DNA from: Schmidtea polychroa
Lineage: Eukaryota
DNA: 64,000 bases
Direction of reading: 5' to 3'
Assembly: GCA_044892525.1 (NCBI GenBank)
Contig: CM097885.1
Coordinates: 16,804,001-16,868,000, forward strand
A program made the position numbers and the translations under genes. The notes under the pieces were generated by a model. The model was not told the origin of the DNA. It did not search any database and saw only the letters and a list, made by a program, of their open reading frames with translations. Below are positions 15,761 through 49,412 of the stretch, in pieces; position 1 is the stretch's first letter; the number at the start of each line of letters is the position of its first letter.

Positions 15761-22109
<6,349 letters not shown>

Positions 22110-22949: not shown

Positions 22950-23471
22950 TCACATATCCATTTGGGTATCTTTAATTATTTCCTCCATTTTTGATAAATT
23001 ATTTGTAAAATCATCCATAGTATTATTAACAAATTCAGAAATAATATCTTCGTCATATGCTCCTTTAATTTCATCTGATATCACTTGGAAAATTTCACAT
23101 TCTATATTTTCTTTGATTTTCTCTGCACTATAACCTCTATTTAAAAGTCTTTGATAAAGAAATGAATTTTCAGTTCTCAAAACAAATACAAATTGAAACC
23201 ATCTTTCAGGGAAAAAATCTCCACCGTGGTATTCAACTATGTTACCACCTTCACACATTTTATCTTCAAGGAAATCTATTATTTTGTCTTCATCAATTAT
23301 ATGACATTGCCTTTCTTCATCGTACGACTCATAAAAATTATTAGCTTTCACAACATCGCCAATATTTATATGATTGTAATTTATTTTATTTGCTAATTCT
23401 GTTGAAATAGTTGTCTTGCCAGTTCCTGGTGTACCAACGATAAGTACATTTGATTTCAATGGATTAGCCAT
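22950..23471 (-). CDS. AK6: Adenylate kinase isoenzyme 6 (AK6/CINAP/Fap7)
   Basis: Intact 173-aa ORF; P-loop GTPGTGKTT, GGNIVEYHG.DFFPERWF, RGYS..KI.ENIECEIFQ. Confidence 0.95.
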   Translation of the reverse strand: MANPLKSNVLIVGTPGTGKTTISTELANKINYNHINIGDVVKANNFYESYDEERQCHIIDEDKIIDFLEDKMCEGGNIVEYHGGDFFPERWFQFVFVLRTENSFLYQRLLNRGYSAEKIKENIECEIFQVISDEIKGAYDEDIISEFVNNTMDDFTNNLSKMEEIIKDTQMDM

Positions 23472-23981
23472 AATTCTATAATATTAATAAGTAAATTAAC
23501 ACACTAATATTTGACAAATATTTCAATTATTCATATTATTTAAACAAAAATAAAAAGTCAAAAAATTATTAATTTTAATTAAGATATAAATTTGATTGAG
23601 CTTTAAAAATTCTAAGAAAATGCGTGATCAAAATAAAGTATAGGTTCTAAAATATGTAGTTATATATTTTATATTGATGTTTTTATTATCATTTTGGGGT
23701 CCAACTTATTTAGGACGGGCGCAAAAATTTTACCGATGTAAGGAACTAAATTATTCTTAATATATAATATTCGAATATTCGAACTATTTTTTATTAAATT
23801 GGGTCGATGAGGTAACTAATCGAAATAATTTCTATCTCAATTGGATATAAATTAGAACTTTCATTTGGCTCTCGTTACTAGGAAACTTTAGTAATTTAAT
23901 GATAGGGCCAAAAAAATGGAGAGCTTTTTTAAATGAATCGGAAACAATTTTTATGGAAACGGTACCAAGTTGAATTAAGTA

Positions 23982-24052
23982 ATTGTAATTTATTTTATTT
24001 GCTAATTCTGTTGAAATAGTTGTCTTGCCAGTTCTTAGTGTACCAACGATAA
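23982..24052 (-). pseudogene. ~70-bp duplicate of the AK6 P-loop segment (23373-23443)
   Basis: Near-identical DNA; encodes IVGTLRTGKTTISTELANKINYN. Confidence 0.85.
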
Positions 24053-24834: not shown

Positions 24835-25570
24835 AGTAGATGGATTGGGCACCGCTAGCACACCCTCCCCGGCAGAAAATTAAAAAAATTTTTTTCAAGG
24901 TCAAACTTTAAACAAAGACATATGACTCATCAAGGACATTTAAACAAAGACCATGACTCATCCAATGACTCATCAAGGTCATTCTCAAGGTCATGTGACT
25001 CACACTATGACTCACCAAGACAAAAAATTTTCAAGGTCATTTAAACAAAGCCCATGACTCATCAGGGTCACCTGAGTCATCCTATAACTAACCAAGGTCA
25101 TTTTCAAGGCCGCATGGCTTATCCAGGGTCATATGACTCATCGCGATGACTCATCAAGGTCATATTATTATTTTGAAAAAATATTATTATTTTTACTATT
25201 ATTTTTCAAAAATATTATTAAGTGTGCAAGCGGTGCCCTACTATTTGGCATGCAAAAAGTTATCGTTCTCATCAATTTATTTCATCGATCGATAGATTAT
25301 TTTGAAGCTTGGTGCAAGACCTTTCGAATGAGCTATAGTGGTCATCAACATCATTAATATAGGCAAAGTTATTAACATTTTCCGGAGACCATTTTCAAGG
25401 TCATTTCACTATTTTATTATTATTTTTAAAAATAGTATTTTTTCAAGGTCAAATTTTTTCAAGTTCATATTTTAAAATTTAAATTTACAGAGTTCCCGCC
25501 TACGAAAATTATTCCACGATAGCTCATTTTAAAGCCCAATCCAAGACCTTTCAAATGAGCCATATATCTC

Positions 25571-25571
<1 letters not shown>
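24835..25571 (+). repeat. Left TIR of Polinton A; the right TIR survives as pieces ~35578-35846, 50030-50077 and 56303-56671
   Basis: Each piece is the reverse complement of consecutive parts of the left TIR. Confidence 0.92.
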
Positions 25572-25655
<84 letters not shown>

Positions 25656-26222
25656 GTATTAATATATATATATATATATATATACTCCGAGTTTATCCGA
25701 CAAAATATTCTGCCCCCCTATGGGTAATGCTCACAAGGGTACTGCTCACGCTCAACAACTCGCAAGGGTATTATTAAACAAATCAACAAAACATACATTT
25801 ATTTAAACAATTAAATAATTTAAAATTAACAAAGGTAAACTAAATATTGATGTACTAGTATTCGCAGCAATATTGTTTGAAATTGGTAACGTTGAATTGA
25901 TTTTCAGATATTCTATTGATCCTTTGATTGTTTGAATTTCGCTTAATAATAATTCAATATTTTTAACAAATAATCATGCTTCTTATCAAAAATTTTCATA
26001 TTCTTTTTATTTTCGACAATAGAATTATTGAAAATAGAGTTATTATTACTGTTCTCATATTATTATTACTGTTCTTATATTATTATTAATGTGTCATATT
26101 ATTGTTCTCAAATTATTACTATTTATTAATTATATTACTATTTATATTATTACTATTTTTTATTATTACTATTATTTGAAATATAAAAACAAAACAATAG
26201 AAACACAATAAAAAAAAATTTA

Positions 26223-26634
26223 TTAACATCCAAAATCCAAAACTCGGGAGTAATGAAACCTTCTAAGAGTTTTCACTAACTCCCATTCATCATATCGCCG
26301 ATAACGATCGGCACAGCATGAGCATCCGATGATGCACTGATATTCTGATTCCATGTGCTTCATCGCCCTATTGATTTTGAGATGCCATAGAAATTGATGA
26401 AAGACCTCAAATATCCGGATCTGTGTCGGATAAAATAGGAGATCCGGAATGATCTCTGGTTCTCGATCATTCAAAATTTCATTTAATTGTGGATAGAAGA
26501 ATTTTATGCGGTTCATCATAACTTCTGAAGATTTTTCTGAAAATAAAATTATAAAAATGAAAATAATAAATTTAAAATTTACCATAGTCATCGATATCCT
26601 TCATCAAATGTGCTGCGCTTGGAATCTTTTACAT
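26223..26634 (-). pseudogene. Polinton A unknown gene with a probable 46-nt intron (26537-26582)
   Basis: Removing GTAAAT...TTTCAG joins KIPSAAHLMKDIDDY-EKSSEVMMNRIKF in frame; CxxxCxCC near the C-terminus; stop at codon 2, or start at the Met at 26604. Confidence 0.5.
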
Positions 26635-26705: not shown

Positions 26706-27142
26706 TTAGAAATCGACCAAAGAAATTATCTCATTTCGAAAATTGTCAACAAATTCTCTATATTCCAAATTTCTCAACCCCAGCATGACAACCTTTCCAC
26801 TAGCAAACACGTTGACATATATAGGGTTATATTTTAATAGTTTTAGTGCAGGAAACAATTCCACTTCAAACATACAATCACATTTTTTCGACATGTTATA
26901 TAAATTGATACTATGTCCCATATCCATAGTAACGGTAATTGATTGGATTTTAATATTATTTATTCGATATTGTAATTTATTAATATCCAAGGTTTCTTAC
27001 ATCCCATGATTCTACATTTACCTGTCTTGAAAAATATTATCGGGTATTTCATGCTTCTATCGATAATTTGCTGGAGTTTTCCTGGTGGGAACCTCCTATT
27101 CAACACATCAAAATTTCCTCGATAATTTATATCTGCTAACAT
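26706..27142 (-). pseudogene. TATA-binding-protein (TBP)-like gene of Polinton A, one frameshift at ~26990
   Basis: Two TBP-type repeats: PIIFFKTGKCRIMGCK and NIKIQSITVTMDMGHSINL...FEVELFPALKLLKYNPIYVNVFASGKVVMLGLR (cf. TBP FKIQNMVGSCDV.FPIRL, YEPELFPGL, LLIFVSGKVVLTGAK). Confidence 0.8.
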
Positions 27143-27243
27143 TATTAAATCATTTATAAAAATTAGTCTTTATATACAAATTGAGCACGAGTTCATTAAA
27201 TCATCGTATATAAACAAATACACATATATTTATAAAATTTGAA

Positions 27244-27870
27244 ATGGAATTAAGAAATGATGCAGTATACCAAATCGTTGGTCCGAGTGGTAGTGGAAAA
27301 ACATTATTTGTTTGCAAATTACTAAAATCAAATTTATTCAAAACCAAATTCAACAGGATTTATTGGCATAGGGGTGCTGATGAAGAACATGGATTAACTC
27401 AATCAAGTTTCTGTAAATTAAAAAACATGAAAATAGTAAAGGGATTCGATAAAAACTGGTCCAGCCGATTAAAGAAAGGTGATGTCATTATTATCGATGA
27501 TTTTTATCAAGAAGCTAATAAAGAAAAAGATTTTAATAATTTATTTACAAAGATTAGCCGACATGTTGGTGTAACAGTTATTTTCATAACACAAAATCTA
27601 TTTCATCAAGGTGGGGCACATCGAACACGTAATTTAAATGTACAATATTTAGTTATTTTCAAGAATCCTAGAGATGCAACAGTGATTGATTTTCTTACAC
27701 GTCAAGCATACACTAACAATCGTAATTTTCTTATCAGTGCATTTCAAGATGAATCAAAAATACCTCATGGATATATATTTCTTGATTTCACATAACAATG
27801 TCCCGAATATTTACGAGTAAAAACAGATATTTTCAACCCAAAATGTGCCATGGTTTATAAACAAAGTTGA
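27244..27870 (+). pseudogene. Polinton A packaging ATPase (A32/FtsK-like); premature stop at 27793
   Basis: Walker A GPSGSGKT, Walker B VIIIDD, SRH...IFITQN, FKNPRD; the frame continues QCPEYLRVKTDIF after the stop. Confidence 0.92.
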
Positions 27871-27888
27871 AAACCTCTATGAATAATA

Positions 27889-28422
27889 ATGTTTCTAAAA
27901 GCAAGTGTGAAAAATATTAGGAAATTAAGAAAAAGTATTAGAGAGAGTATTAAAGTTCCAAAAGTTCCACCAACAACTAGCTATACACCATCTAAAAAAC
28001 TTGTAACTGAAAATTTCTCTGCAATGAATCTTATTTCGAAAAATCCTAAACCTAAACGTAAAACCCGTAAAACCCGTAAAACCGGTAAAAAAGTAGTTAA
28101 AAATCATCGCAGTTTTCCATTTTTTAATGCATTGTTAAAGGCCCCGAGTATGAAAAGAATGAATATATTGCAATCATTCCCAAATTTTGTTGTCGATGAT
28201 TTACTCAATATTACACTTAAAGTAGTCAAAGGCAAAATTAAAATCAGTAAATCAAAAAAGCATTTATTGAGCAAACATAGGAAACCTTTGTTATCATTAG
28301 TAAATAATAAAAATCGTAAGCAAATGAGGGAAATTATATATAAACAACAAGGTGGATTTATTGGTGCATTGATACCTCTTGCATTATCATTATTAGGTGG
28401 AGTTGTAGGAAATCAATCATAA
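27889..28422 (+). CDS. Basic core-like protein with an adenovirus pX-like C-terminus
   Basis: Very K/R-rich; ends QQGGFIGALIPLALSLLGG, resembling the adenoviral pX GG(F/I)LP.LIP hydrophobic tail. Confidence 0.7.
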   Translation: MFLKASVKNIRKLRKSIRESIKVPKVPPTTSYTPSKKLVTENFSAMNLISKNPKPKRKTRKTRKTGKKVVKNHRSFPFFNALLKAPSMKRMNILQSFPNFVVDDLLNITLKVVKGKIKISKSKKHLLSKHRKPLLSLVNNKNRKQMREIIYKQQGGFIGALIPLALSLLGGVVGNQS

Positions 28423-28425
28423 ACA

Positions 28426-28614
28426 ATGGGTGCTAATCCTTCATTGCCCGACATTAAATTTAATTTTAAATCTTCTTGTTGTAATGGAGAAGATTTGGAC
28501 GAACCCAGAAGACGAAGCCGGTTTCGGTGGAGTGGAAAAATTAAAGAAAAGAGTTCCGAATTCGAAAATAAGAAACCCAGAAGTGGTTATCAGATCAGCT
28601 TGCGTACAGTTTGA
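28426..28614 (+). CDS. Small putatively acylated protein overlapping the integrase start
   Basis: MGANPS (MGxxxS myristoylation consensus) plus SSCC; starts just after the previous stop. Confidence 0.45.
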   Translation: MGANPSLPDIKFNFKSSCCNGEDLDEPRRRSRFRWSGKIKEKSSEFENKKPRSGYQISLRTV

Positions 28615-28871
28615 ACAAACCAATGCGGAAAAGATTTCCAACAAGAGCATATAAAACATTTGGTATTGACGATTTATGGCAAATGGATTTGATGGAGATG
28701 ATACCGTATTCGAAAATTAACAATGAGAATAAATATATTTTAACATGTATTAATGTATTCAGCAGGTTTGCAAGAGCAATACCAGTCAAGGCAAAATCTG
28801 CAGATGAAATGTCCAAGGCAATTAATATTTTATTTACAGATGGACATCCTAATAACTTGAAACAGATTTAG

Positions 28872-28957
<86 letters not shown>

Positions 28958-29590
28958 TTAGGTAAAGAATTCTACAATAGCAAAGTTAAGCAAATCTTCA
29001 ATAAACTGAAAATAAATCACTACTCGGTACATTCTCAATACAAAGCTGCCCATGTTGAAAGATTTAATCGAACATTGAGAGATAGATTAAAGAAATGGTT
29101 CGTGCATCAAAGTAATAAAAAATGGGTAAATGTTTTACAGAAAATAAAAACAAGTTATAATCATTCATCACATCGAGGACTGAATGGATTGAGACCGGTT
29201 GATATTACATCACAAACATCATTGTCTTCTAAAAAATCTGTAAAAATTGCAAAACCTAAATATAAAGTCGGTGACCATGTTAGAATTAGTAAAATTAGTG
29301 CATCACCATTTATTAAAAATTTTGATACAAATTGGAGTGATGAAGTCTTTGTAATTTCAAAAATAAATAATAAACAGAATCCTGTAATATATGTCATCAA
29401 AGATAATGATAATAATATTGTACAAGGGAAATTTTATGAGCAGGAATTACAAGTCATTCCTCCCCCAAAAGTATTTAGAATTCAAAAAATATTGAAAACT
29501 AAAAAGGTCGGCAAGGATAAACAATACTATGTCAAATGGCATGGTTATCAAAACCCGTCATGGATATCAGCAAAAGACCTAGTAAAGCGA
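28484..29590 (+). pseudogene. Polinton A rve integrase with C-terminal chromodomain; frameshifts; 90-nt intron-like insert 28872-28961
   Basis: AGFGGVEKL, DDLWQMDL, TDLG|KEFYN, KAAHVERFNRTL, YKVGDHVRI, GKFYEQELQ, IQKILK...YYVKWHGY..PSWI. Confidence 0.93.
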
Positions 29591-30578
29591 ATTTTTATAC
29601 TATTTTACCGAGCAATAGTTGCCCATTAATTCATCCAGACAATCAAGCAAGCAAATTCATCATCGAACTCCAAAACTCCATCTATTTGGATAATGACTGG
29701 GAAGTTGCACTGTTGGATTTTACATTTGTATACAATTTATTCCCAATCTATAGCAAATCAGTTATTGAATGTAATAAGAAAGTAGCAGTAACGGAATAGG
29801 TTAAAACTTAACGAGTTCATCGAAATCAAGGAAACCCATAATTTATGATGATGGTCAATATTTATACGTGAATTGCTTGAATAAGCCATTCGAAATTTTA
29901 TTTTCTACAATGGTTGATGCTAAACGTTTTGGATTTACTGATTTACGTAATGTATTTCATGATACAGTCAAAATAAATCTCGCTACACTTCCAAAAACTA
30001 ATAATTTAGTGGAATTCAAATTTAAGCTATCATACTTTGAAATAACAGAGCATGCATATACTTTTAAAGATAATTTATATATTACAGAACTCGAACAATT
30101 ACAAACTTATTTAGCTGACAATTGTAGCGAGATTTTAACAGTTTTCGAGCTTCAAAAAGATAAAGTATTTAGATTTAGTATAAATTCTAATCTTAGTCAA
30201 GTTAAATTTGACTCAAATTTGACAAAAATATTAGGATTGTCTAAACCGATAAGTACACAAAATGAACAAATTTGTGAAGGAACAAACAAACCGAAAATCC
30301 TTAAACATCATCAGCAAATGTTCATTTACAGTAATATTGTGGAACCAGTTATTGTTGGCGATTCTAGTGTTCCTTTAATGAAATCTATATGGATTGAAAA
30401 ACATGATCATGATGAAGTTGTACAAATCAATGTAGAAAATCCCATGTATTTACCTGTTTCAACATCTTGTATAAACAATATAGAAATAAATATAAGAGAT
30501 GATTCTGGTCAATTAATCGAATTTCCAAAAGGTTCAAAATCTCATTTGACATTACATTTTCGTAAAATAAATGGCTAA
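29587..30578 (+). pseudogene. Polinton A minor capsid (penton-like) protein, disrupted
   Basis: N-terminal FYTILPSNS...PDNQASKF.I.L...I.L...WEVAL; C-terminal MFIYSNIVEPVIVGDS.VPLM...PMYLPV...IEINIRDDSGQLIEF...LTLHFR. Confidence 0.85.
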
Positions 30579-30843: not shown

Positions 30844-30919
30844 ATGTTTAAAAAGTGATTAAGAAACTACAGCTTTAAAATATTCCATGTAGTTTGCAAT
30901 GAACATCTACATTAGTTAA

Positions 30920-31013
<94 letters not shown>

Positions 31014-31266: not shown

Positions 31267-34200
31267 ATGAAGAAATATTATAGAAAAATCTTTAACGGCA
31301 TCAACTTTTTTATATGCCCCAAATGCATAATTAGCGAAAAAATAAAATATAATGCATTTTTTAATAAACACCGTAATCACTTAGGGCAATTTTCGAGACC
31401 AAAAAATGAACTATTTCGAAAAATAAATAAAAAAATAAATAAAAATTTACAAAAAAATATAAAAAGATTCTATTAAAAATATTATTAAAAAAGATTCTAT
31501 TAAAAAAGATATTATTATTAAAAAAGATGTTAAAATCACAAAAAGACCTGATGATTTAATTAAAAATATTGTTCCGAATAAATTATCGCGACCAGAAGTG
31601 ATAGTCATCAGCAAAGATGAATGTGTAGCTTCAACATCGTTAAAACCGCAATAATTTACACGACATTCATGTACACAACAAGAAGTGATAGTCATCAGTG
31701 ATAATGAACGTGTAGCTTCAACTTCTTCCAACATAAATCAAATAGTTGGCTGTTTATTCGAACCTATCATGGAATCCGATTTGAATGGAACACGAAAAAC
31801 CATAAAATTTGATATAAGAAATGAAAATTTAATTTATATAGGCTTAACCTCTAAAATAGAGCAAAAACTACGAACTGAAATCGAAAAGATGGGTAAGGTA
31901 AAAATACAGTTCGCAATTTTAATAAAATTTGAAAAAGATGGGAAGATCCGGGATAATTATTTTTCGAACAACGCACAAGTTTTTACCGATAATTTTATAA
32001 ATGAGGGGGTGAGCAAATTAAATGAAAAAATTGAACAATTCACTTTGTTTAGGAAGCGGGTGGCGTGTAATTAATATATTTGAAATCGATTTTATTTTAA
32101 CAAAATTCGCACCCGTTAGTAGATTATCCGGACATAGTTATATAAAAACCCCATCAGCATTAAAATTAAAACACGCAATAATTAACGTAAAAAACAACAA
32201 CCATAAGTGCTGCTTATATAGCATTCTAGCACTTTTAAAAAGAGAAGAAATAGGTCGTAATCATCAAAGAGCCGCCAAATATTACGAATTTTTAAATCTA
32301 TTAAATTATGATGAAGACACAGATTGTCAATGAGACTGTGTAACATTCCCAAATTTGAGAGGAAAAATCCTGACTTAAACTTGTCCATAAACGTTCTGTC
32401 TTATAATCCAGCCAGTTCTGATTCTGATATTTCTGAGGATTATGTAGCTCACCGCCCTCATCTTAATATTATTCATCGTTCTAAGGTTATCGATGGTAGG
32501 CCGATTTATTTATTACTTTTGAGTAATAAAGATAAATATCACTATACGGCCGTTACAGACTTGGACAAGTTAATGAATTGTCATTTAAATGAAAATGTAA
32601 ATGTTCAAATAAGGTGTAACTGGTGCCCACATTGTCTTAATGGGTTTAGATATAAGAATGCTTTTGATCAGCATGTTGCTCTATGCTGTAAGAATCAGAC
32701 TGGCACAACACTCTACACACTTCCTAAAAATAAAGATTTATTATTTACAGATTACGCAAAAACCGTTATACCTCCCTTCGTAATTTATGCCGATTTTGAA
32801 TCGGTTTTACCTCAACATGAAACACATCATCAAATACATTTACCTATCTCAGCAGGTCTTTTACTTATAAATAATTATACTAATACTAAATTTTATTTTT
32901 TTGGACCGAATTGTGTTTTGGATTTTTTAAGGAAAGTGGAGGAAATTGCTGTCACAATTTTCCTGCCATATTATGAACTCGAAAGTCATAAAGGCATGTC
33001 TACTTTGTCTTTTGCTCAGGAGCGTGCCTTTCGATCTAGTACTATTTGTTATTTATGTAAGAAAGATATTATTAGTCCTGTAAGAAATCATTGCCATTTT
33101 ACTGGCAGATATGTCGGAGCGGCATGTAGGAGATGCAATGTCTCTCGCAGGATTAATAAGTTATTTCCCGTTGTATTTCATAATTTAAGAGGCTATGATT
33201 TACATCATATTTTAAAACATGGCTTCAGTGATTTTCCCCTTTGGGAATTAAATATTATACCTACCTCTACAGAGAAATTTATTTCTTTAATTGCTTATAT
33301 TAACAAATTGCCTGTTCGTTTTATTGACAGCATGCAATTTGTTAATTGTTCTTTAGCTAAAGCTGTGAAAACTCTTACTACTTTTCCTTTAACTTCGTCT
33401 GTCTTTCAAGGGTCAATGATTCATTCTAAAGGTGTCTTTCCGTACGATTTTGCTACTTCTTTGGATGTTCTTGAATCGACTTTGGAATTACCTCCTATTT
33501 GGTCTGATATTACGGAAGATCAGTACACTGAGGCTCTACTAATTTGGAGTCAGCATAACTTTAATAATTTGTTAGATTATATGCTAATCTACCTAAAATT
33601 AGACATATACCTCCTCGCAGACTATTTTCAGCAATTCCGCGGTAAGGCAATTGCTTACAATGGTCTGGATCCACTTAATTTTTATGGGATTCCCGGTATG
33701 TCATGGGCCTCAGCGCTTATGACATTAACGGAACCTATAGAACTTTTGCAGGACATGGAAATGTACAATTTCTATGAGGGAGGTATCCGGGGTGGGTTAA
33801 CATTTGTTAACAAACATTACACGGCTACTTCAGATGACACAGATTTATTGTACATAGATATAAATAATCTGTATGGTTGGGCTCTTAGCCAAAATCTTCC
33901 GTATGGTTATTTTTCTTGGGTGAATGATAATTTGAATGATGTTTTGCTTGAATGTATGAACACGGATATTGATAACCTTCCATATGGGTACACTATGGAG
34001 GTTGATATCGATATTCCGGAATGTGTGCATGATTTTTTGAATGATTTTCCGCTTGCGCCGGAAAAGTTGTGCCCACCTAATTCAAAGGTTGAGAAGCTTA
34101 TGCTTACGCATTGGCCAAAGAGGAACTATGTTCTTCATTGGAGGCTTCTCAAATTGTATATAGAATTAGGTAAATATTCATAGATGTATAAAATTTAAAC

Positions 34201-35364: not shown

Positions 35365-35413
<49 letters not shown>

Positions 35414-35458
35414 TAAAAATATTAATAATAATATCAATAATAATATTAATGAAACTTT

Positions 35459-35491
<33 letters not shown>

Positions 35492-36147
35492 GTAATAATA
35501 ATAATATAATAATAATATTAATAATAATAATATCAATAATAATATTATTGAAACTTTGTAATAATAATAATAATGATGAGATAATTGGCTCATTCGAAAG
35601 GTCTTGGATTGGGCTTTAAAATGAGCTATCGTTGAATAATTTTCGTTGGCGGAAACTCTGTAAATTGAAATTTTAAAATATGACCTTGAAAAAAAATTTG
35701 ACCTTAAAAAAATTTGTCCTTGAAAAAAATGACCTTGAAAAAATTATATTTTTAAAAATAATAATAAAATAGTCAAATGACCTTTAAAATGGTCTCGCGA
35801 AAATGTTAATAACTTTGCCAATATTAATGATGGTGATGATCACTATAGTAGTGGATGTATGGCCTTCGCGGACCCAACCCACCCTAGCCCCCAATGTCAA
35901 ACCCCTTCACATTCAGCCTAAAAAACTAAACTTTTTCATCTTTTAACCCCCTATTTCTACATCTTTTAGTCATAAAACCCTCAAATACACCAATCCAAAA
36001 CCTCACAGATCCAAGCGATCGAAGGGGGAAACATGAAATGGGTCAGCCTCCGTGAAGGCCATACATCCACTACTATAAAAACATAAAAATTTTAAATACT
36101 AGCAAATTGCGCAGTTTGCATACCCAATAAAAAATTTTTTTAAAAAA

Positions 36148-39100
36148 ATGAATATTATCAATTTTCAAATTTTGAATATGTATAATTGTAACATGTGTAA
36201 TAAAAGATTTAAAAATAGAACAGCACTAATATCACATGAAAAATCTAAAGAGCATTTATTAAAGACGGTTGGACTAAATGATTCAAACTCAAAACTTTGT
36301 CCTAAATGTAAACAAAGATATTTACTTTTAGGATATGATAAACATTTTAAAAACTGTAGTGGGATTAAAAGAAATAGAAAAAAATTTGAATGCCCTATAT
36401 GTAGATCAAAATTCACCACAGAATCTTATTATTTAAAACATTTAAAAGAATGTGCTATTGTTAAAAGAGATCCTGAAGACCTTGAAGAAGAAGATATAAA
36501 AGTTAGAGAAGAAGAAAAAGAATATGAAGAAGAAGAGATTGAAAAAGAAAAAAATAATTGGGACAACTTTAACCATGTAGATAAATTTGAACAAACATTT
36601 ATATCCTCTTCATCTTTAGAGTATATAAATAAAAATAAAAAAAACATAAAAAAATCAATGGAAGATGCTATAAAAAAATTTGGTAAATCAAGATTTAATA
36701 TTATTAAATATAAAATTAGAATCCATTCAAGATATTGGAGAGGAGAAGATATAAACACAACACTCTTGGATGCTATAATTGAAACATCTTATGATTATTT
36801 ATTCTCAACCGATGGATTTAATAAAAAAATCAAAGAGATTATTCATAAAGTTGCAGATGAGCATAGAGTGGTTGAACAAGAATTAGGAGAGTCAAACCTA
36901 AAATTCCTTTCATTTCAATCACTTGAAATTGAATATTGGAGAGGAGCACCTCCAAATCCTAAATCATATATCCCTACTCCCTTTACTTCTATTCACATAA
37001 TAAATATTCGAAATAAGGATAATAAATGTTTCCAATGGTCAATCCTTGCACACTTACATCCTCAAGAAAATCATAAAGAAAGACCTGCAAAATATAAGCA
37101 ATATGAAAATGAATTAATATATCCAAAAGGATTTAAACACCCGATGAAGATTGAATACATTCCAATTTTTGAAAAATTAAATAATATTAAACTTAGCATT
37201 TATGAATACATTTGCCAGGTGGGTGATAGGAAACATATTATTCCTATCCATGTTTCAGATAGAGAATTATCAGAACAAGATAGAAATAGAGAAATATATC
37301 TTTTAATATTACAAGAACATAAAAGAGAACAAGTCTATAAGGAATATGATGATCTGGATGAGGAAGAACAATATTTAAATATTGAAGATGATCAAGAAGA
37401 AGACCTTGAAGAGGAAGATGAGGGGAAACAACATTATATTCTAATAAAAAACTTTAAAAGCTTTATGAGATCGAAAAATCACCACAGTGGTGGAACAACA
37501 TGTAAACGGTGTTTATATTATTCAGCTTCAGACATTGCAGAATTTAAACATGAAAGATTATGTTGTAAGAACTTGCCAGCATTAATTAAAATGCCGAGTA
37601 AGGAAAAATCTAACATGCATTTTAAAAACTTTTCAAACCTATTAGAAACAATAGGAGTAATATATGGAGACTTTGAGGCAATTAACATAAAACAGGATTT
37701 AGACCAAGAATATTTAAAAATAATAGAAAAAAATAATTTATTAGACTCTTGGAACCAAAGGACTGAAGGGATCTCCATGAAAAACTTTTTAAAATTAAAT
37801 AATAAATCATACACCATAAAACTAACAAAACAGGTAGCATCAACATATAAATTATTTTTTAAAAGTAATTACCCAGACCTCATAGAATCTGAAGAATTTT
37901 CATTTAGAGGATCCTCAGAAGAAGAAACTCTAAATCATTTTACTAAAGACATAAATGATTTAGAACATAAAATTTTTAAAACTTTAAAAACAAACTTTCC
38001 AATAAATTTTCAGAACAACAATGGGAAGAATATGAAAATTGCACAACTTGCTGGATGTGCAAACGGCTATTTGAGGATCAACTCTTTGAGAATCCTGAAG
38101 GTCTTCCCGAGTCTATTGAAGAAGAAGAACAAAGATTATTTCATCAACAACAAACTCAAAACATAAAAGTTCCTGATCATGACCACTTTAAAAAAGAAAA
38201 TAATTATAGAGGAGCAGCCCATAAGAATTGTAATATAAATTGTAAAAGACCTGCATTTGTACCAGTTATATTTCACAATCTTTTTGGTTATGACATCCAC
38301 CTATTTATAAAATGTCTAGCTGTAAATGCTAAAAATTCCTTTAAAGTCATAGGTTTGACAAAAGAAAAATATAAATGTGTTCAATATGGACGACTAAAAT
38401 TTATAGATTCATTAAACTTTCTATCAATGTCCTTGGATGGAATAGCAAAAACTATGAAACCTGAAGACTTCACCCACACAATTGAAAAAGTATTAGTAAA
38501 AAATAATATTCCCCAGGAGGAATATAAAACCTGTTTGGCAAAAGGAATCTATCCTTATGATTACATCAACTCATTTGATTGTTATAATGAAACATCTTTA
38601 CCCCCTCAAGACTTGTTTTTTTCAATATTAAATCAAACGGATATAAGCGATCAAGAATATGCCCGAGGGAATAAAATGTGGGAACTTTTCAAATGTAAAA
38701 ACATTGGGGATTATACTGACATGTATTTATCCCTTGATGTTTATATCCTTGCAGATTGTTTCGAGGGATTCACAAAAGCCTTTACTCTTAAACCTTATAA
38801 TTATATAACATCTCCATCTTTAGCTTGGGATATATCATTATATACAATGTGGGCCTCTGGAACAGAGTCCATAGAACTATTAACTGAAATCGACATGTTT
38901 AATGTACTTAAAGAAAATATTCGTGGAGGTGTTAGCTCCGTGATGGGAGATAGAAATATAACTGCAAACAACTTTATATCTCTATACAAGAAATTCTTTA
39001 GTGAATATCCTGAAGCAAATGCTATAGAAATAAAAACCGATGAGGATTTAAATTTCATAATGGAAGGTTTAAATAATCCATCAGAGATTATGTATATAGA

Positions 39101-40616
39101 TGCAACAGCTTTATATTCAGGAATAATGACTCAATACCTTCCAATTGATAACTTCATTCAGGTGGATATCCCCACGGAGGCTGATCTCCTAAGAAAACTT
39201 ATGAATGAAATATTATCAACTGAAAAAGATTCAGAAGTGGGATATATAATAGAATGTGATTTAGAATATCCTAATGATATAAAATATGTAACTAGATACT
39301 TTCCATTTGCGCCAGTGAAAAGAAAAGTAGATTCTAATGAATTATCACCCCAACAAGATAGACCTACAACTGTAAAACTTTTATGTGATCAAACTGATAA
39401 AACTTGGTATCTTTGTCATTATAGATTATTACAATTTTATCTTTCACATGGAATGAAAATAAAAAATATACATTCTATAATAAAGTTTAGACAACTTCCA
39501 TTCATGAAAACCTTTATAGAGGGAAATATTAAATCTAGGAATGAAGCAAAAAGAAATGGAAACGCTTTCCTTGATATGATTTATAAACTTTTAAATAATT
39601 CAGTCTTTGGAAAGACAATGGAAAATGTTGACAAATATACTCGTGTAGAATTATTGACAAATAGTTCAAAGGATTTTGCAAGGTATAATCGAATGCTTTC
39701 AAAACCTACATTTAAAAATGCAGAAGTATTCTCAGAGAACCTTGTAGCCGTTGAACTAAAAAATAGTGAAAAGACTTATAACAAACCAATCTTTATAGGC
39801 TTTACCATTTTAGAATTATCAAAACTTCAAATGTATGAAACCTATTATGATATTCTACTACCACATTTTAAAAATAGAATATCTATGCATGCATTGGATA
39901 CCGACAGTATGTTTTTAAAAATATATACTAAAAACCTAAAAGAGGAAATATCTGAAAATGAAATCCTAAGGAATTAAATAAATTCATCAGGAGAATTATT
40001 CACCTTTAAAGATGAAAAGCCAAATACAGCAATAATTGATGCTGTCTTTATTAGATCTAAACAATATTCACTAGAAATGATTGAAGCCCCAAAGATTGAA
40101 ACCCATTCAATTAAAATCATGGATCAAACATTTGATATACCAGTATTAATACCTTCAAAACTTAAAACATCTAAAGATAATAAAAATAAAGGTATACAGA
40201 AATCAGTTTCTAGAACTATACCCCATCAAGACTATAAGGATATTCTAAATAAAAATCAACCAGATAAAATAGTTGAGGTTCATCAACTTAAATCTGAAAA
40301 GCATAACATGTATTTATAAGAATCAAATAAAATATCATTATCTAATTATGATGATAAGAGGTATATTTTATCAGATTTAAAAAAGACACTTCCAATTGGA
40401 AATGATATGATTCCTCATATAAAAAATTTAAAGAACATTTCAGATCTTCAACTGTATGAACTTCGAATACTTTACCCTGAAAGCCGAAATAACTATTTGG
40501 AATTACATCTTGAACAAAATCCTATAAACCTAAATGATTACATCTTAGACGTTAAAACCATATCATCTTCAGTCATCAATGAAGGAAAGTCTCTGGAAGT
40601 CATTCTGAAAGCTTAA
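36148..40616 (+). pseudogene. Polinton B pPolB with three N-terminal zinc fingers and an endo-VII-like insert; frameshift ~38010, stops at 39975 and 40317
   Basis: CNMC..H..H and CPKC/CPIC fingers; IYGDFEA, DHDH...YRGAAHKNCN, FHNLFGYD, KGIYPY, YIDATALYS, KLLNNSVFGKTMEN, LDTDS, FKDE, YDDKR. Confidence 0.95.
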
Positions 40617-41044
40617 AAATGACTGAAATACCCTTAAAATCCATTTTTGAAAACTTAAAGTCTTTAACAGATGACAAAGTATTGATTGATATTATTAAAG
40701 CTTTGAATAAATTAAAAAACAAACCATCTGTTTCAATAATAAAAATTTTTTCTTTTATAGTTATAACATCTTTTTTATTTTCTCTTTTATTTTCTTTTGG
40801 TTTACCTTGGCTAAAGTCTTTCTGGCTTTAATCTCTTTATGGACTTCGTTCAACTGTTGTTTTAGATGATCTCTTTCAATCTCGATATCATTTATAATCC
40901 AAAGTAATACAGGCTCTCGAATGGCAAGTTGCACAGTGAGCAAGGCTTTATCCTCTGAAGATTTCTCATTATATTCTTTTAATGCAAGACTTGATTGCTT
41001 TTTAATAATAGGATTACTTTTTATCAAATTTAAAACACGTTCAT

Positions 41045-41491
41045 TCATTTATTAAAGCTTTTAAACATGATACTAGTTCGATCTAAAATATCTTCAACAT
41101 CTTCAGGTTCAGTTGTAGAGACTCCTGTTCCAGAGGCTAAAGGATCTTTTCTTTGACCTTCGGACCTTTTATATTTCTTAGACTTGATGCATTTATGATT
41201 TTGTTGAAGTACATTAGTTGAACAATCATTACAATAAACACCCTTTTTCTCTATAACCCTCTTCTTTTTATTTGCATGCCTATAAGGAGAATCAATTCCT
41301 AAATCTTTTCTAATTCTTCTCATTGTAGAATCTGAAGTACCAATCATTTTACAAATTTGAGTTTGAGAAAAAGTAGGGTTTTCACTCTTTATTCTAGCAA
41401 ATTCAAAAGCCTTCTCTTTTTGTTGAATCTTATTTAATATTAAAGGATCAATTATTGAAAGTTGTTCAATTTTTTTTATAAAGCCATCCAT
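41045..41491 (-). CDS. Polinton B small helix-turn-helix protein
   Basis: SQTQICKMIGTSDSTMRRIRKDLG HTH-like pattern plus a CxxC..H.C cluster; part of a tightly overlapping run of minus-strand ORFs (40761-41702). Confidence 0.55.
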   Translation of the reverse strand: MDGFIKKIEQLSIIDPLILNKIQQKEKAFEFARIKSENPTFSQTQICKMIGTSDSTMRRIRKDLGIDSPYRHANKKKRVIEKKGVYCNDCSTNVLQQNHKCIKSKKYKRSEGQRKDPLASGTGVSTTEPEDVEDILDRTSIMFKSFNK

Positions 41492-41738
41492 TTATTAGTT
41501 GAGGAAATAAAGCAAAATAATATTCTCCTTTTCCAATTTGGTCTTGTATACTTAAAGATTTAAAGTCATTTATTTTATTTAAATAATCAGGGTCATTAAT
41601 TCCTACAAGATAAAATATATAACACTTTTCACCTATTCTAATTTTATCCTCTAATGATAAACTTCTAAAATCATTCAATCTAGATTTCATTATTTCTTCC
41701 ATTTTTTAAATTAAAAATTATACAGGTCTTACGAAGTC

Positions 41739-42287
41739 TTACGTCGAAGTCTTTAACCATTTCTCTTGTTGTATTTTTTTAGAATATTCATCACCTTTAA
41801 CCTTTGTAGTTTTCAACTTTATAACTTCATTTTTAATATCCCTTATTATTTGATTTGATTTCATTATTTCTTCATCTGTTAGGATTCCATCTTCCAAGGC
41901 TTTTAATTGAAATAAAAATAATTTTGATATCCCCAAGTCGATTGTCAAACAAACTTCACGATATAAACTTTTCTTTTTTGAAGTATAAGATAAAGAAAGT
42001 ATTTCAGTCAAGAAAGAATCTGCAACAGAAATACTTCCAAGTATTACGGGTGCAAGAGTAACAACTGGTAAAGTTATAGGTAAAACAATTGTAAGTATTG
42101 CAGATGAAAATCATAAGGAGTAACCTATAATCTTTAAAGCTGTATTCCCTTTATTCCATCTTTTTTTAATTTTTTTATAATGCTTCAGTAAGTCTTGTAA
42201 ATGTAAAGTTTCTGATTTAAATTCTTTCACTCTCATGACTTCAAGTTCTGTAGGAGCTGATGGAATCTTTGGATATCTTGTTTCCAT
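41739..42287 (-). pseudogene. Polinton B membrane protein with a central hydrophobic hairpin; one internal stop (42111-42113)
   Basis: METRYPKIPSAPTE...ALKIIGYSL*FSSAILTIVLPITLPVVTLAPVILGSISVA...KALEDGILTDEEI read in one frame. Confidence 0.65.
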
Positions 42288-42295
42288 TTTAATAA

Positions 42296-43144
42296 TTAAA
42301 AAAATAAGACTTTATTATTTGGTACCAACGCTCGCATATCATAAGAAACTCTTTTTGAGAGAATGTCTTTATACAATTCTATCAACGCTTTACGAACTTC
42401 ATCAACATCAACCTTTTTTTCATAAAATATTAAATCTATATATTGTACAAGTGTGCTTTTAAAAATAATATTCTTACTTTTAACTTTATGTGTTTTATGT
42501 GAATCAGTTTTGTCATGCCAATGTCCATGTGGTAAATCATAACCAGTTATTATAACGTCATTCTTTTCAAACTTACTATTATAATCACATTTTACAAACC
42601 ATTTCATTGTTTCACCATCATCATTAAATAAAAAGAAATAAGGATCAATAATCTTTACAACCATAAAACAAGACCATTCTTTACTATTTGTAATTATTAA
42701 AGTTGGTTCTATAAAATGTTTATATCTATTGGGTAATAATGTATTATTCTGTTCTAATTCAGCAGCTCTTTTTCTAATAGTGTGTGTTGTGTTAATGTGT
42801 GTTGTATGAGACTCTAATTTAACAAGTCTTACATTAAATGATGTAATCATCTCATTTATTATATTATATATTGTATTAATTTTATTATCCATAAGTTGTT
42901 TATTAAGCTTGGATTCTATAGAATTACTCGATTTAGGAAACTTAAGCTTTTCATCTACATATTTTTTATTAGCTGCATCAAAATCATTAATTGGAGAAGA
43001 TAATTCTTTTATCTTGTGTCCATTTAAACTTAAATCACCCTTCATTGAATCTCCTTTTTCATTAACAAATCTTTTTTCTGTAAGAGCTATAACATCTTCA
43101 TCTTTTAATCCATCATTATATAATCCTAATTTATTATAATTCAT
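42296..43144 (-). CDS. Putative fibre/spike-like protein of Polinton B
   Basis: Intact 282 aa; GDSMKGDLSLNGHKIKELSSP..DFDAANKKYVD motif typical of trimeric fibre/adhesin shafts, then coiled coil and a beta-rich head; directly downstream of the penton. Confidence 0.6.
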   Translation of the reverse strand: MNYNKLGLYNDGLKDEDVIALTEKRFVNEKGDSMKGDLSLNGHKIKELSSPINDFDAANKKYVDEKLKFPKSSNSIESKLNKQLMDNKINTIYNIINEMITSFNVRLVKLESHTTHINTTHTIRKRAAELEQNNTLLPNRYKHFIEPTLIITNSKEWSCFMVVKIIDPYFFLFNDDGETMKWFVKCDYNSKFEKNDVIITGYDLPHGHWHDKTDSHKTHKVKSKNIIFKSTLVQYIDLIFYEKKVDVDEVRKALIELYKDILSKRVSYDMRALVPNNKVLFF

Positions 43145-43146
43145 TT

Positions 43147-43899
43147 TTATAGTAATAATCTAACTTGTTTCAAATGTAAACACAATGAAATCTTTTCTCC
43201 ATTAAAATTAATCAATTTCCCATTTTCATCAACAATTTTAAAACTAATACTCATCAAGTTTTTTCTACATAAAGGTAAATAGTTTGGAGGATTCATTCTT
43301 TCAACCATTTTATATCCAACTCGAACATTAGAAGGAAAGGAATATAAAATATTTGCATGTTTACCATTATTATATGAACCCGTTATACAATCACACTCTA
43401 TATTTATAGAATTTGTATTTGTTATTTGAATAATATTTTTAGATTTAATAGGTGACTCACCACTATTATATTTTTTAACTTCAAAACCTAAAATAGTATG
43501 AAAGAAACTAGAAGCTTCAATATTAAGTCCAATATTTTTTTTTAAAGTCATAATATATTTTGAAGTTGGAAAATCTACTTTTATTTCTATATTTCCATTT
43601 GTTTCTTTTAAAATTGTTTTAGCTAAATCCATTAATTCATATGCTCCTGGTTCAATTGTTGTACCCGTGTATACACCAAAGCCCTCCTCCTCATTATCTT
43701 GCTTCTTATATACAGTAAAGTTATTATTATTATTATTTATATTAAAAATAGTATTAAAACAGCTAAACCACAAGAGTGCTAATTCATAATTTAAATTTTG
43801 ATCTAAATTTATTGAATCTTCAAAATTTATAGTAAAATCTGATTCATTTGAATTTACTAATAAACTTCTTGAATATTTATCTGACATTATGTTTACCAT
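43147..43899 (-). CDS. Polinton B minor capsid (penton-like) protein
   Basis: IEPGAYEL, INIECDCITGSYNNG...ILYSF, YLPL...ISFKIVDENGKLINFNGEKISLCLHLK. Confidence 0.85.
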   Translation of the reverse strand: MVNIMSDKYSRSLLVNSNESDFTINFEDSINLDQNLNYELALLWFSCFNTIFNINNNNNNFTVYKKQDNEEEGFGVYTGTTIEPGAYELMDLAKTILKETNGNIEIKVDFPTSKYIMTLKKNIGLNIEASSFFHTILGFEVKKYNSGESPIKSKNIIQITNTNSINIECDCITGSYNNGKHANILYSFPSNVRVGYKMVERMNPPNYLPLCRKNLMSISFKIVDENGKLINFNGEKISLCLHLKQVRLLL

Positions 43900-43921
43900 T
43901 TTTTAAAATTATCTTCCATTT

Positions 43922-44311
43922 TTATAATAGAGGTTTTAGATCATTATAAATTTCTTGGATTATAGATTCAAAGCCCTCTCCTTTGGACACATTCAATCTA
44001 TACAAAACATATAAACTTAAAATACCACATATTTTAGTATTATTAGGTTGAACTTGTAAAGAATTAAAGGTGTAGCCTTTTTCAAGATAGTCTTCTACTT
44101 CTTTATTAGGTTTAATCCCAAAAGAATCAAAGTATATAGATTTATTATATATACAAACCCAATGAGATCCTTTTTCATTTGAATCTTGATAATTGATTAT
44201 TATATTATCCTTTAGTCCTTTCAGACTTGACAATTCATCATTCATTAATATTTTAATTTTTAAATTTAAATAATCTGCATAATCTTTTAAATCAAAATTT
44301 GTTTTTTACAT
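43922..44311 (-). pseudogene. Adenain-like cysteine maturation protease (stop at codon 2; downstream 107 aa open)
   Basis: IINYQD...GSHWVC, YFDSFG, QVQ...ICG catalytic H-D-Q-C pattern. Confidence 0.9.
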
Positions 44312-44352
44312 TTATTCCAAATGTTTTTAAAAAATCTAATATCTTCGGAGGA

Positions 44353-45168
44353 CTAGTCATTTGTATATTTATTAAATTTATCTTTTGAAATTATTCCTTG
44401 TTTAAATAAATCTTTTGAAATCTTTAAAATATCAGAATTTAAATTATTATGTCCTGCTTTTTTAGCAGCTAATAGTTTTCTCAATTCTATAAACTTAGAG
44501 ATTGGATCTATCCCCTCACCCTCTTTAACAATATAACCCCTTTCATTTTTATTTAAATAATTCTTTAAATCTTGAATATGTTTTGCTTTTGGACTACCTC
44601 TTATTAATTTTATAAAATTTAAATATTTTTCAATTTCTTTAATATCATCTGAAGGATATCCACAAATTAATCTATAAAAATCATCTGTAAATTCAAAGTC
44701 TAAATATTCATAATTATAAACATTTTGTGAATGAATATGTGATTTATTTTCTGGAGTTATATATAAAGTAAAGTTTTGTTTATTAATTGTTATAATTTGA
44801 TATCCTTCAGGATTAATATTAAATATAGGTTTAATTGTTTCACTTAAACCCTCTCTAATTTTAGGATCAACTTTAAGAGGTTTTGTTTTTAAAAACATTT
44901 CTTCTTCTTCTACACTTGAGAGTTTTCTACGTTTTCTTTGATTCCTTTAAGTTGGTCCTTCTATGGCTTTAATACTTGGATTCTCTATAGTTTTAGGCTT
45001 TATGGCTTCTATAGCTTTAATTATTGGTTGTTGTTGTTGTGTCATTTCTTCATTTGCTGTTATAGATTCACTATGTTGGGTTATATCTTTTATATCATAC
45101 TTGTCTTGTTCTGATTGTAATTTTTTTAAAAGTGCTAATCTTTCTTCATATACCATTTTATATACCAT
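44353..45168 (-). pseudogene. Polinton B uncharacterised protein (in-frame stop at 44947)
   Basis: Two track ORFs lie in the same frame; C-terminal LRKLLAAKKAGHNN...I...L...GII resembles a recurrent Polinton motif. Confidence 0.55.
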
Positions 45169-45172
45169 CAAT

Positions 45173-45730
45173 TTACCATTCTTCTTCTTCTTCTTCAGAT
45201 TCTGATTCAACAAGTTGTAAATATAAACCTTTACCATTTTTAAGTTTACAAAGGCATCCTTTCTTCAAAGATTTACACATTTTTTTAAAATCATCTTTAT
45301 CTTTTGATGATAAAGATTCAGATGTTGAAATTTGATTTTTTAAAAAATCATTTAAACCTCTGCCTTTATATGGATCAAGATAGAGACCTTTGCCCTGATA
45401 TGGATTGAGATAGAGACCTTTTCCTTTAGCTTGCCCTACCTTCATTTTCTCGATTTCAGTTTGTAGTTTTTCTTTTTCAAGGTCTGTCTTTTGAGATTCT
45501 TTAGCTTTTTGAACTGTAGTTGCAATTCCTCCAGCTATTCCAGCAGCACCTGATAAAGCAGCAATGATTGCAGGTATTAAAGCAGCTAATGGAAGAATGC
45601 CACCTTCTCTAATACGTTCTTTAACTTGTTCTTTTACATGTTTTCCAATAAAATATTTTTTACCATCAATTACTACTGATTTATTTTTATTTGAATTTAT
45701 TAATTCTTGTAAAGATTCTTCAGTTGTCAT
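45173..45730 (-). CDS. pX-like core/membrane-active precursor
   Basis: REGGILPLAALIPAIIAALSGAAGIAG resembles the adenovirus pX tail; repeated GKGLYL motifs. Confidence 0.7.
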   Translation of the reverse strand: MTTEESLQELINSNKNKSVVIDGKKYFIGKHVKEQVKERIREGGILPLAALIPAIIAALSGAAGIAGGIATTVQKAKESQKTDLEKEKLQTEIEKMKVGQAKGKGLYLNPYQGKGLYLDPYKGRGLNDFLKNQISTSESLSSKDKDDFKKMCKSLKKGCLCKLKNGKGLYLQLVESESEEEEEEW

Positions 45731-45746
45731 TTTATAATAAATAAAA

Positions 45747-46505
45747 ATGGATATTTGGAAACCAATTTTAAATCGACACAAGAGTAAATTTAATAATAAA
45801 TTATTTCCTGATAATTTTAGATTATTAATCGTTGGGTCTTCAGGATGTGGTAAGAATGTACTTCTTTTGAGAATATTACTAGAAGAAGGTTTTTTAGATT
45901 ATAATAATTTAATCTTTTATTCTACAACCATAAATCAACCAGAGTTACAACTTTTGAAATGTGGATTTGAAAATAAATTAACTAAAAAAGTTATAATTGA
46001 TATTTTTAAAAATCAACATAGATGTCCTGACGAGGTTTTTCAACCTTGTGATATGATTGATTGGTATAAGGAAAAGATTTTAGAATCAGATATTGATAAT
46101 AAAAGTGATTACATTTCTGAAAATGAACCTGAAGATGTTTTACATTGTGATTTACTTCCTAAAGATGTAAAGAATCTAGTTATATTTGATGATGTTGTCA
46201 ATATGAAAAACCAAGAGATTCAAAAGAGTTACTTTACACGAGGTCGACATAATAATTGTAATGTTATTTATATATCTCAAACCTATTATGCTTTGGATAA
46301 AAACTCTATAAGAAATAATTCTAATTGTTTTATATTTTTTAAATTAGAAAAGCGTGATAAGAATATGATTTATAGTGATTTATTTTCAAATGTTGAACCT
46401 GATAAGCAAATGTTTGATATGTTTGTTGATAATCATTGGAAAGAAAAATATAATTATATTTATTTGGATAGAGAAGAAACTGAAATATGGAAATGTTTAT
46501 TTTAG
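45747..46505 (+). CDS. Polinton B packaging ATPase
   Basis: GSSGCGKN Walker A variant, LVIFDD, FTRGRHNNCNVIYISQTY, SIRNN. Confidence 0.92.
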   Translation: MDIWKPILNRHKSKFNNKLFPDNFRLLIVGSSGCGKNVLLLRILLEEGFLDYNNLIFYSTTINQPELQLLKCGFENKLTKKVIIDIFKNQHRCPDEVFQPCDMIDWYKEKILESDIDNKSDYISENEPEDVLHCDLLPKDVKNLVIFDDVVNMKNQEIQKSYFTRGRHNNCNVIYISQTYYALDKNSIRNNSNCFIFFKLEKRDKNMIYSDLFSNVEPDKQMFDMFVDNHWKEKYNYIYLDREETEIWKCLF

Positions 46506-46516
46506 AGCTTGTCGAC

Positions 46517-47867: not shown

Positions 47868-47883
47868 TTTTAAAAGTTAAAAA

Positions 47884-49155: not shown

Positions 49156-49259
49156 TTTTTATATTACTAAATTAGAAATTGCGCAGCTTGCTAGTTTTTA
49201 AGATTTAAAATTTTTAGAATTTTATAAATATAAAATTTTAAAAAATGACAAAAATCCGA

Positions 49260-49341: not shown

Positions 49342-49412
49342 CAACATAAAATAATATTAAAAATTTGAAAATAATTTTGAAAATAGTGTGTGAAAAAAAA
49401 AATTATTGAAAC

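Follow-up and report, generated by a model that had tools for sequence, protein, structure and literature searches.

A conserved mini-TBP gene in a Polinton clade, with a YATAAACA box ahead of the element's other genes

Polintons are regarded as ancestors of several eukaryotic DNA virus groups. The cellular TATA-box binding protein (TBP, PF00352) has paralogues, TRF1 and TRF2/TBPL1, with altered or lost TATA specificity, and the Polinton-borne mini-TBP described here may be likened to these as a candidate TBP-fold factor for a separate promoter class. TRF1 and TRF2/TBPL1 are, however, host genes with full-length repeats, and the six host TBP-family loci considered here group apart from the mini-TBPs. 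With cellular TBP itself, mini-TBP shares two tandem repeats, a predicted ten-stranded saddle, the E-P-E-L-F motif and three of the four wedge phenylalanines. It differs in size (145 aa as opposed to a core of ~180 aa), in sequence (~25% identity), in a first repeat without helices H1 and H2, and in being carried by a mobile element; furthermore, an invariant Pro takes the place of the first stirrup Phe, and of the four central Asn/Thr positions three carry other residues. TBP folds are also encoded by giant viruses and asfarviruses (e.g. ASFV pB263R), with 22 BFVD entries matching mini-TBP at E ≤ 1e-3. These proteins are 186–608 aa long with 7–20% identity to mini-TBP, and the viruses concerned bring their own RNA polymerase, whereas no RNA polymerase domain was found among the ORFs scanned in an intact copy of the present element and 11 related contigs.

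A gene of this kind has been labelled before. In Starrett et al. 2021 (PMC8502044; preprint 10.1101/697771), the legend to Fig. 5 labels a 'TBP' gene in adintovirus-like MELD viruses, which the preprint calls a homologue of a host protein. As far as the accessible part of that paper goes, the element combines a TBP-similar gene with an adintovirus-like PolB, as does the mini-TBP element; its 'TBP' is known from the label, with no size, fold, conservation or promoters given there, and it may or may not belong to the mini-TBP family. The text supplements of PMC8502044, in the part available, contain neither 'TBP' nor 'TATA'. Beyond Starrett et al. 2021, no mention of a TBP-like gene in such elements was found in the literature searched, nor, among the papers listed, was the sequence YATAAACA found together with Polinton terms. 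Of the initial annotation of this locus, which proposed a Polinton carrying its own TBP-like gene, the assignment to a Polinton and the homology over two repeats both stand. That such a gene exists at all, however, is not entirely a novelty, being partly known through the 'TBP' figure label. What is new is the YATAAACA box ahead of the element's other genes. According to the accessible part of the literature on virophages as well as polinton-like viruses (PLVs), their promoters copy giant-virus late motifs. The likeness to the present case lies in one short shared motif ahead of most genes of a small DNA element; the reader of the virophage/PLV motif belongs to the helper virus, whereas here the candidate reader is element-encoded and the motif is TATA-like.

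The mini-TBP gene in the window and its element

The 64-kb window, i.e. the whole stretch of Schmidtea polychroa DNA analysed, contains one mini-TBP gene, a broken copy on the minus strand at 26706–27142. Its first piece spans 26960–27142 (60 aa). The second minus-strand ORF (26706–26927, 73 aa) lies in another frame, the stop-to-stop extent of which (26709–26996, 96 codons, stop at 26706–26708) overlaps the first piece. Comparison with seven intact copies of the same family, each encoding an uninterrupted protein of 145 aa, reveals that the window gene is one base short at about codon 51 (position 153 in an ORF of 438 nt). The annotation's joining of two minus-strand ORFs through a single 1-nt frameshift into ~145 aa is thus confirmed, both for the place of the missing base and for the exact length. 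The window gene also carries 21 substitutions over 437 aligned bases; of these, 10 are synonymous and 11 are non-synonymous, and dN/dS is 0.25. Taken by itself, the second piece is accepted by Pfam PF00352 (E = 1.6e-6, 28.3 bits with a cut-off of 22.9), whereas the first has zero Pfam matches and is recognised by the mini-TBP family's own profile at E = 4e-15. The window gene is therefore a decayed, frameshifted copy of a 145-aa mini-TBP gene, located inside an internally deleted element.

Two other readings of the interrupted frame were considered and rejected. An intron is excluded because the sole GT...AG pair would delete a conserved strand, the first of repeat 2, and the intact copies have no such gap. 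A programmed frameshift is excluded by the existence of intact copies, given that 142 of 150 scored genomic copies read straight through.

The element is bounded by terminal inverted repeats (TIRs) that were delimited by repeat comparison at 25333–25681, which includes a (TTA)n run, and at 35471–35848. The pair (25333–25681 against 35848–35471) matches at 82% over 383 nt; the six bases beside each assigned boundary differ, with no target-site duplication found there and the boundaries themselves uncertain. Downstream of mini-TBP, a 122-aa ORF of no known family (26223–26591, minus strand) is homologous to the 98-aa ORF that follows mini-TBP in intact copies. Upstream, a divergent intergenic region of 101 bp (27143–27243) separates the mini-TBP start from that of an A32/FtsK-type packaging ATPase (27244–27795, plus strand; Pfam Pox_A32, E = 4.4e-7), 183 aa long here and 208 aa in the intact copy. 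This agrees with the earlier description of the gene as lying inside the TIRs, head-to-head with the ATPase block across a gap with several TATA-like words. The intergenic region holds a canonical TATA word at ~27168–27178 (minus strand), ~34 nt ahead of the mini-TBP ATG, as well as TATAAACAA at 27209–27217 (plus strand), 34 nt ahead of the ATPase ATG. In four sequencing runs guessed to be RNA, contigs cover the gene, and one contig reaches from the start of the ATPase through the intergenic region to the far end of mini-TBP; they are uninformative on transcription.

The plus strand continues with a ATAAACAA box at 27857–27864, followed 32 nt later by an ORF for a 177-aa basic protein (27889–28422), and with a second ATAAACAA box at 28419–28426 and integrase fragments (rve at 28623–28871) that are ended by a (TTA)n run at 28873–28957. 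A third ATAAACAA box at 29517–29524 is located ahead of two virion-region ORFs of unrecognised fold (29536–29799 and 29910–30578), with a further box at 30471–30478, and a fragment of a protein-primed family B DNA polymerase (pPolB) occupies 32330–34183 (617 aa here, 1334 aa intact; DNA_pol_B_2, E = 4.1e-17). Long (TTA)n/(TAA)n runs occur within the element at 25572–25669, 28873–28957, 30912–31011 and 35365–35570, one of which breaks the integrase gene.

An intact copy elsewhere in the genome is ~15.5 kb long. One strand encodes a RING protein, the 1334-aa pPolB, an adenovirus-type cysteine protease (Peptidase_C5, E = 4.6e-6), three unrecognised ORFs, an integrase with a chromodomain, the basic 177-aa protein and the ATPase, with mini-TBP and the 98-aa ORF divergently placed on the opposite strand. 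The window element is inverted relative to this copy, 88–93% identical, and lacks ~5 kb that include the protease region. The Polinton hallmarks pPolB and retroviral-type integrase are present as fragments in the window, the integrase as rve with chromodomain in the intact copy, and both likewise in relatives. Presumed capsid ORFs of 406, 236 and 123 aa gave zero Pfam matches even at E ≤ 1, and one relative displays a weak Capsid_N match (E = 0.0073).

Other features of the window surround the element. Just beyond its right TIR, at 36148–39977, overlapping plus-strand ORFs of 672 and 640 aa encode C2H2 zinc fingers and then a second pPolB; these probably belong to another Polinton copy. A second, unrelated Polinton is located at ~41000–49400, with an ATPase (45747–46505), an integrase (46983–47444) and pieces of a double jelly-roll capsid protein (47884–49155). 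It belongs to a high-copy family (2527 first-look candidates, PF21738) and was found by window scan to contain neither a mini-TBP nor YATAAACA boxes. To the left of the element are a 13-nt tandem array of ~22 registers (20361–20853), an inverted repeat pair (21025–21792) in which two 160-nt arms, 91% complementary, flank a spacer of 448 nt, and an AAA_18/adenylate-kinase-like ORF (22950–23471, E = 4.6e-34), of which a 78-nt partial duplicate, 94% identical, is found 609 nt away at 23975–24052.

Fold and conservation of the mini-TBP family

The intact natural protein matches Pfam TBP with E = 1.6e-15 (57.1 bits, cut-off 22.9) in two stretches, in keeping with the two TBP repeat signatures noted in the initial annotation. 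Among PDB sequence matches at E ≤ 10, 35 of 36 are TBPs, the best being an archaeal TBP (1.8e-11), and hhalign against canonical TBPs yields 99.5% probability (E = 1.7e-22). An AlphaFold2 model built from a 66-sequence alignment displays a TBP saddle (pLDDT 95.3, pTM 0.84), for which all 44 Foldseek matches in the PDB at E ≤ 1e-3 are TBPs. Superposition by VIA-align on human TBP in the pre-initiation complex gives Z 12.7 with an rmsd of 2.6 Å over 144 of the 145 residues; 38 TBP entries score Z 10.7–12.7, and the next fold 6.3. Profile and structure prediction, as proposed for the repaired protein, hence both point to TBP.

The two repeats differ in the model. Repeat 2 has the full S1-H1-S2-S5-H2 pattern and conforms to the S1-H1-S2-S3-S4-S5-H2 topology, to which repeat 1 does not. 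Repeat 1 consists of strands alone (residues 2–10, 25–28, 35–38 and 42–48) with a three-residue helical turn, both helices being lost, which accounts for the ~30 residues fewer than in the canonical core. Fourteen columns are invariant among the 66 sequences, including F38, F97, F113, P94, E95 and the C43-R44-x-M46-G47 strand. The E-P-E-L-F stirrup, which aligns to YEPELFPGL, combines the invariant P94, E95 and F97 with E93, conserved in at least 90%; we take it to correspond to the TFIIB-contact surface of canonical TBP. Two pairs of phenylalanines presumably wedge the DNA, a role we adopt from the yeast and human TBP structures. According to hhalign, F38, F97 and F113 are kept, while the invariant P23 stands in for the first stirrup Phe of repeat 1, a repeat for which the alignment is less certain than for repeat 2. 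With one of four wedge phenylalanines missing, TATA-type bending is not assured. The same alignment places N4, M46, S68 and L121 at the four central polar positions, compared to N, T, N and T in canonical TBP. The model thus depicts mini-TBP as a genuine two-repeat TBP saddle with a canonical C-terminal and a derived N-terminal repeat.

Searching the 781-Mb Schmidtea polychroa genome with the second frame returned 3632 first-look candidates. The 150 places that were scored are all about 94–100% identical to the query: 142 have a frame of 154 codons, four have frames of 146–502 codons and four are shorter, the window's own among them. The mini-TBP locus is far beyond chance. The same genome harbours two or more additional families of mini-TBP, with products of 156 and 170 aa. 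Public data contain 109 homologous clusters of 96–232 aa with 37–97% identity, the names of which are automatic 'TATA-box binding protein' labels from JGI without taxa. When 1.84 billion representatives were scanned in full with HMMER, 59 proteins matched at E ≤ 1e-30 and 751 at E ≤ 1e-10; at E ≤ 1e-3 the number rises to 3399, ordinary TBPs included. IMG/VR contains one weak TBP relative and four distant relatives of the ATPase, and yielded no usable set of elements lacking mini-TBP to serve as control. From metagenomes, 103 loci with mini-TBP were found and 80 kept. In all of the 11 longest of these, mini-TBP is accompanied by one or more Polinton hallmarks (rve in nine, A32 ATPase in five, pPolB in four and protease in one). 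The ATPases of mini-TBP elements are 65–76% identical to that of the window element, compared to 27% for the ATPase of the second Polinton in the window.

The family evolves under constraint, with a median Nei-Gojobori dN/dS of 0.165 over 42 pairs of 72–98.5% nucleotide identity, which share lineages and are non-independent; all but one of the 42 stay under 0.5, with a range of 0.06 to 0.24 for pairs of genomic copies. In a tree of 53 rows (quick search, midpoint root for drawing only), a long branch of SH-aLRT 100 sets the 39 mini-TBPs apart, and six host TBP-family rows group with the eukaryotic TBPs. Besides its canonical TBP (124 bits), the host genome contains five or more additional loci of the TBP family, of which three are single-exon with 166–215 codons (L095–L101, own genome). 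The earlier judgement that the gene is too divergent to be a recent host capture is upheld by this branch and by the grouping of the host loci. The proposed comparisons with intact copies, with host TBPs and by dN/dS all came out in its favour, in that most scored copies keep their frame, the mini-TBPs form their own clade and the median ratio is low. As a family, mini-TBP has both fold and profile match and is no one-off pseudogene; the window copy itself is decayed. We conclude that mini-TBP is a conserved, selected gene of one Polinton/Maverick (adintovirus-like) clade.

The YATAAACA box ahead of element genes

Within the 100 nt ahead of each ORF of the intact copy, TATAAACAA recurs. The core word ATAAACAA is present eight times in the 10-kb locus of this copy compared to 2.43 expected, a count reached by none of 200 shuffles, and seven of the eight are on the gene strand. 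Between the TIRs in the window, all six ATAAACAA words are on the gene strand, at 34, 32, 7 and 19 nt and further ahead of ORF starts. The boxes precede the ATPase, the integrase, virion-region and other genes.

The survey was extended to ORFs of at least 100 aa, with the first ATG taken as start, in 15 mini-TBP-bearing elements, which correspond to about five or six lineages and are non-independent. ATAAAC[AG] occurs in sense within 120 nt of the ATG for 61 of 125 ORFs and in antisense for five, with shuffles giving ~0.1–0.5 per element; the other 64 ORFs have no such box within 120 nt. The distance from box to ATG is mostly 32–41 nt, with 26 of 61 at 30–40 nt. The base ahead of the core is T in 37, C in 22, G in three and A in none of 62 cases, extending the motif to the 8-bp word YATAAACA. 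When C is not presupposed, the base following NATAAA is C in 72 of 131 upstream cases compared to 140 of 965 elsewhere. The 7-mers most enriched de novo between −60 and −20 are CATAAAC, ATAAACA and TATAAAC (18–21 fold). ATAAACA is also the forkhead core (RYAAAYA), and TATAAA is found in many of the instances, so that a host FOX factor or host TBP could read the box.

The mini-TBP gene itself has a different upstream region. Among 63 non-redundant mini-TBP genes, two are preceded by the box and 24 by a canonical TATAWAWR, mostly 34–47 nt from the ATG and often together with a CCAAT box and a TCAYT-like word. In three copies of a Polinton family without mini-TBP from the same genome, the single family that serves as control, the box precedes 0 of 11, 0 of 8 and 0 of 13 ORFs. 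The mini-TBP contigs L017 and L021 likewise have the box ahead of 0 of 7 and 0 of 5 ORFs, both contigs containing only the accessory-gene arm. In these two metagenome relatives and in L023, the mini-TBP arm holds several genes for small acidic proteins, every one of which has a CCAAT box along with GTATATAAGG and a word resembling TCATTATTT. Judged by these words, the accessory-arm promoters make up a putative class distinct from that of the YATAAACA genes, with the same host-type promoter as mini-TBP.

Candidate roles of mini-TBP

The best overall explanation, on which our confidence is evenly balanced, is that the window contains a decayed copy of a selected mini-TBP, a factor that would be made early, read the element's YATAAACA and recruit RNA polymerase II. 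In this model, mini-TBP would be transcribed early from a host-type promoter with a canonical TATA, in many cases accompanied by a CCAAT box and an initiator resembling TCAYT. The protein made from it would then bind YATAAACA, situated where a TATA box is expected, ~30 nt before very short leaders, and host RNA polymerase II would be recruited via the kept C-terminal E-P-E-L-F stirrup, the TFIIB surface. In canonical complexes, we assume, the N-terminal repeat covers the 3' half of the TATA box; the derived N-terminal repeat of mini-TBP would thus face the half of the box in which C at position 7 departs from TATAWAWR. This match of a rebuilt repeat 1 with a divergent 3' half suggests, at the level of sequence, that the two belong together, and that mini-TBP reads YATAAACA as its private box seems to us a proposition just short of even. 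Furthermore, the loss of both helices from repeat 1 may remove surfaces for host TBP regulators, allowing the factor to escape host control. The late-gene factor envisaged in the initial annotation hence receives correlative support from the YATAAACA box, which suggests such a role.

Tentatively, these elements can be combined into a two-tier programme in an animal-type Polinton clade, in which host-type TATA promoters would lead to mini-TBP and mini-TBP to the replication, integration and virion genes behind YATAAACA, with C:G at position 7 tolerated or demanded by the remodelled N-terminal repeat, host polymerase II fed in through TFIIB, and the factor blind to host TBP regulators. Mini-TBP and the box together suggest that the element brings its own promoter-recognition factor. 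If true, an element-borne TBP with its own TATA-like box would form a self-contained early-to-late switch, which would explain how thousands of copies could be silent yet inducible. Mini-TBP would then be the smallest known functional TBP, as well as the first TBP with redesigned sequence specificity to be encoded by an element without its own polymerase. It would also constitute a natural experiment in TBP design, indicating what the saddle can do without and in what way the reading of the minor groove can be adapted to a G:C pair.

Chief among the rivals is a reading of the box by host proteins. Here mini-TBP is equally real and selected, and would serve as a decoy, as the initial annotation also envisaged, or as a competitor that occupies canonical TATA boxes or titrates TFIIB/Brf and so dampens or redirects the transcription of the host, with the box read by host TBP or a forkhead factor. 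The kept stirrup is compatible with such a role, as is a repeat 1 without helices, with which cofactor surfaces may have gone too; ATAAACA equals the forkhead core, and 37 of 62 boxes start with TATAAA. We nevertheless regard it as doubtful, given the strong enrichment of C at position 7 (72 of 131 compared to 140 of 965 elsewhere), the 22 of 62 boxes that start with C, the strictly sense orientation at a fixed distance to the ATG, and the absence of the box from a same-host Polinton family without mini-TBP, counter-points that are not decisive.

Less likely is a recruitment of the saddle outside transcription, where it would bend or mark DNA at the element ends for protein-primed replication, integration or packaging. 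The gene is indeed located near one terminus, relatives have a conserved OB-fold, SSB-like gene adjoining it, and TBP-like half-saddles are known from non-transcription proteins (glycosylase, RepD-type, Z 5–6). Such a role is nonetheless improbable: the TFIIB-contact E-P-E-L-F is strictly kept across sequences that are 35–63% divergent, something difficult to account for unless there is a partner of TFIIB type, and an informal reading of the TIRs showed neither YATAAACA nor TATA repeats.

Also less likely, and in our estimate very improbable, is a virophage-like dependence on a helper giant virus, with YATAAACA as the helper's promoter and mini-TBP serving foreign machinery. Giant viruses do encode TBP-like proteins, and virophages and polinton-like viruses, from the part of the literature available, copy giant-virus promoter motifs. 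The present element, however, has an integrase with chromodomain and thousands of germline copies, the mini-TBPs do not group with the one viral TBP in the tree, and no helper is in evidence. Finally, a recent capture of host TBP, or a chance ORF left as a one-off pseudogene, in favour of which stands the frameshift in the window copy, is refuted by the own clade of the mini-TBPs, the at least 142 intact frames at 150 scored places, the 109 clusters, the Polinton neighbours in 11 of 11 loci and a dN/dS of 0.165.

A conserved gene of 103–189 aa adjoins mini-TBP in at least 22 other loci (L013:8319–8726, plus strand; L015–L044, L105, L106) and belongs to no Pfam family. Its product is predicted by AlphaFold2 to adopt an OB fold (pLDDT 91.4), with best matches of middling Z to single-stranded-DNA-binding proteins, namely ASFV CP312R (7.5), phage DUF2815 (7.2), Enc34 SSB (7.1) and T7 gp2.5 (6.9); in the window copy, no such gene was seen. 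The mini-TBP clade also has accessory genes, which encode a RING finger, a ubiquitin-conjugating enzyme, a parvovirus-type phospholipase A2, KilA-N and C2H2 zinc fingers (L012:1276–1764; L029:225–719; L070, L078, L064, L068, L075, L077).

Intronless TFIIB paralogues of 301–310 codons, with zinc ribbon and cyclin repeats, were found at 13 scored places at C3:38.2–39.1 Mb and C1:23.8–24.2 Mb (L119:4571–5476). No link to Polintons was seen in the one locus read. The canonical host TFIIB is split by introns, the best single-exon match being BRF1, and the TFIIB core P0250 is 92% identical to a host exon.
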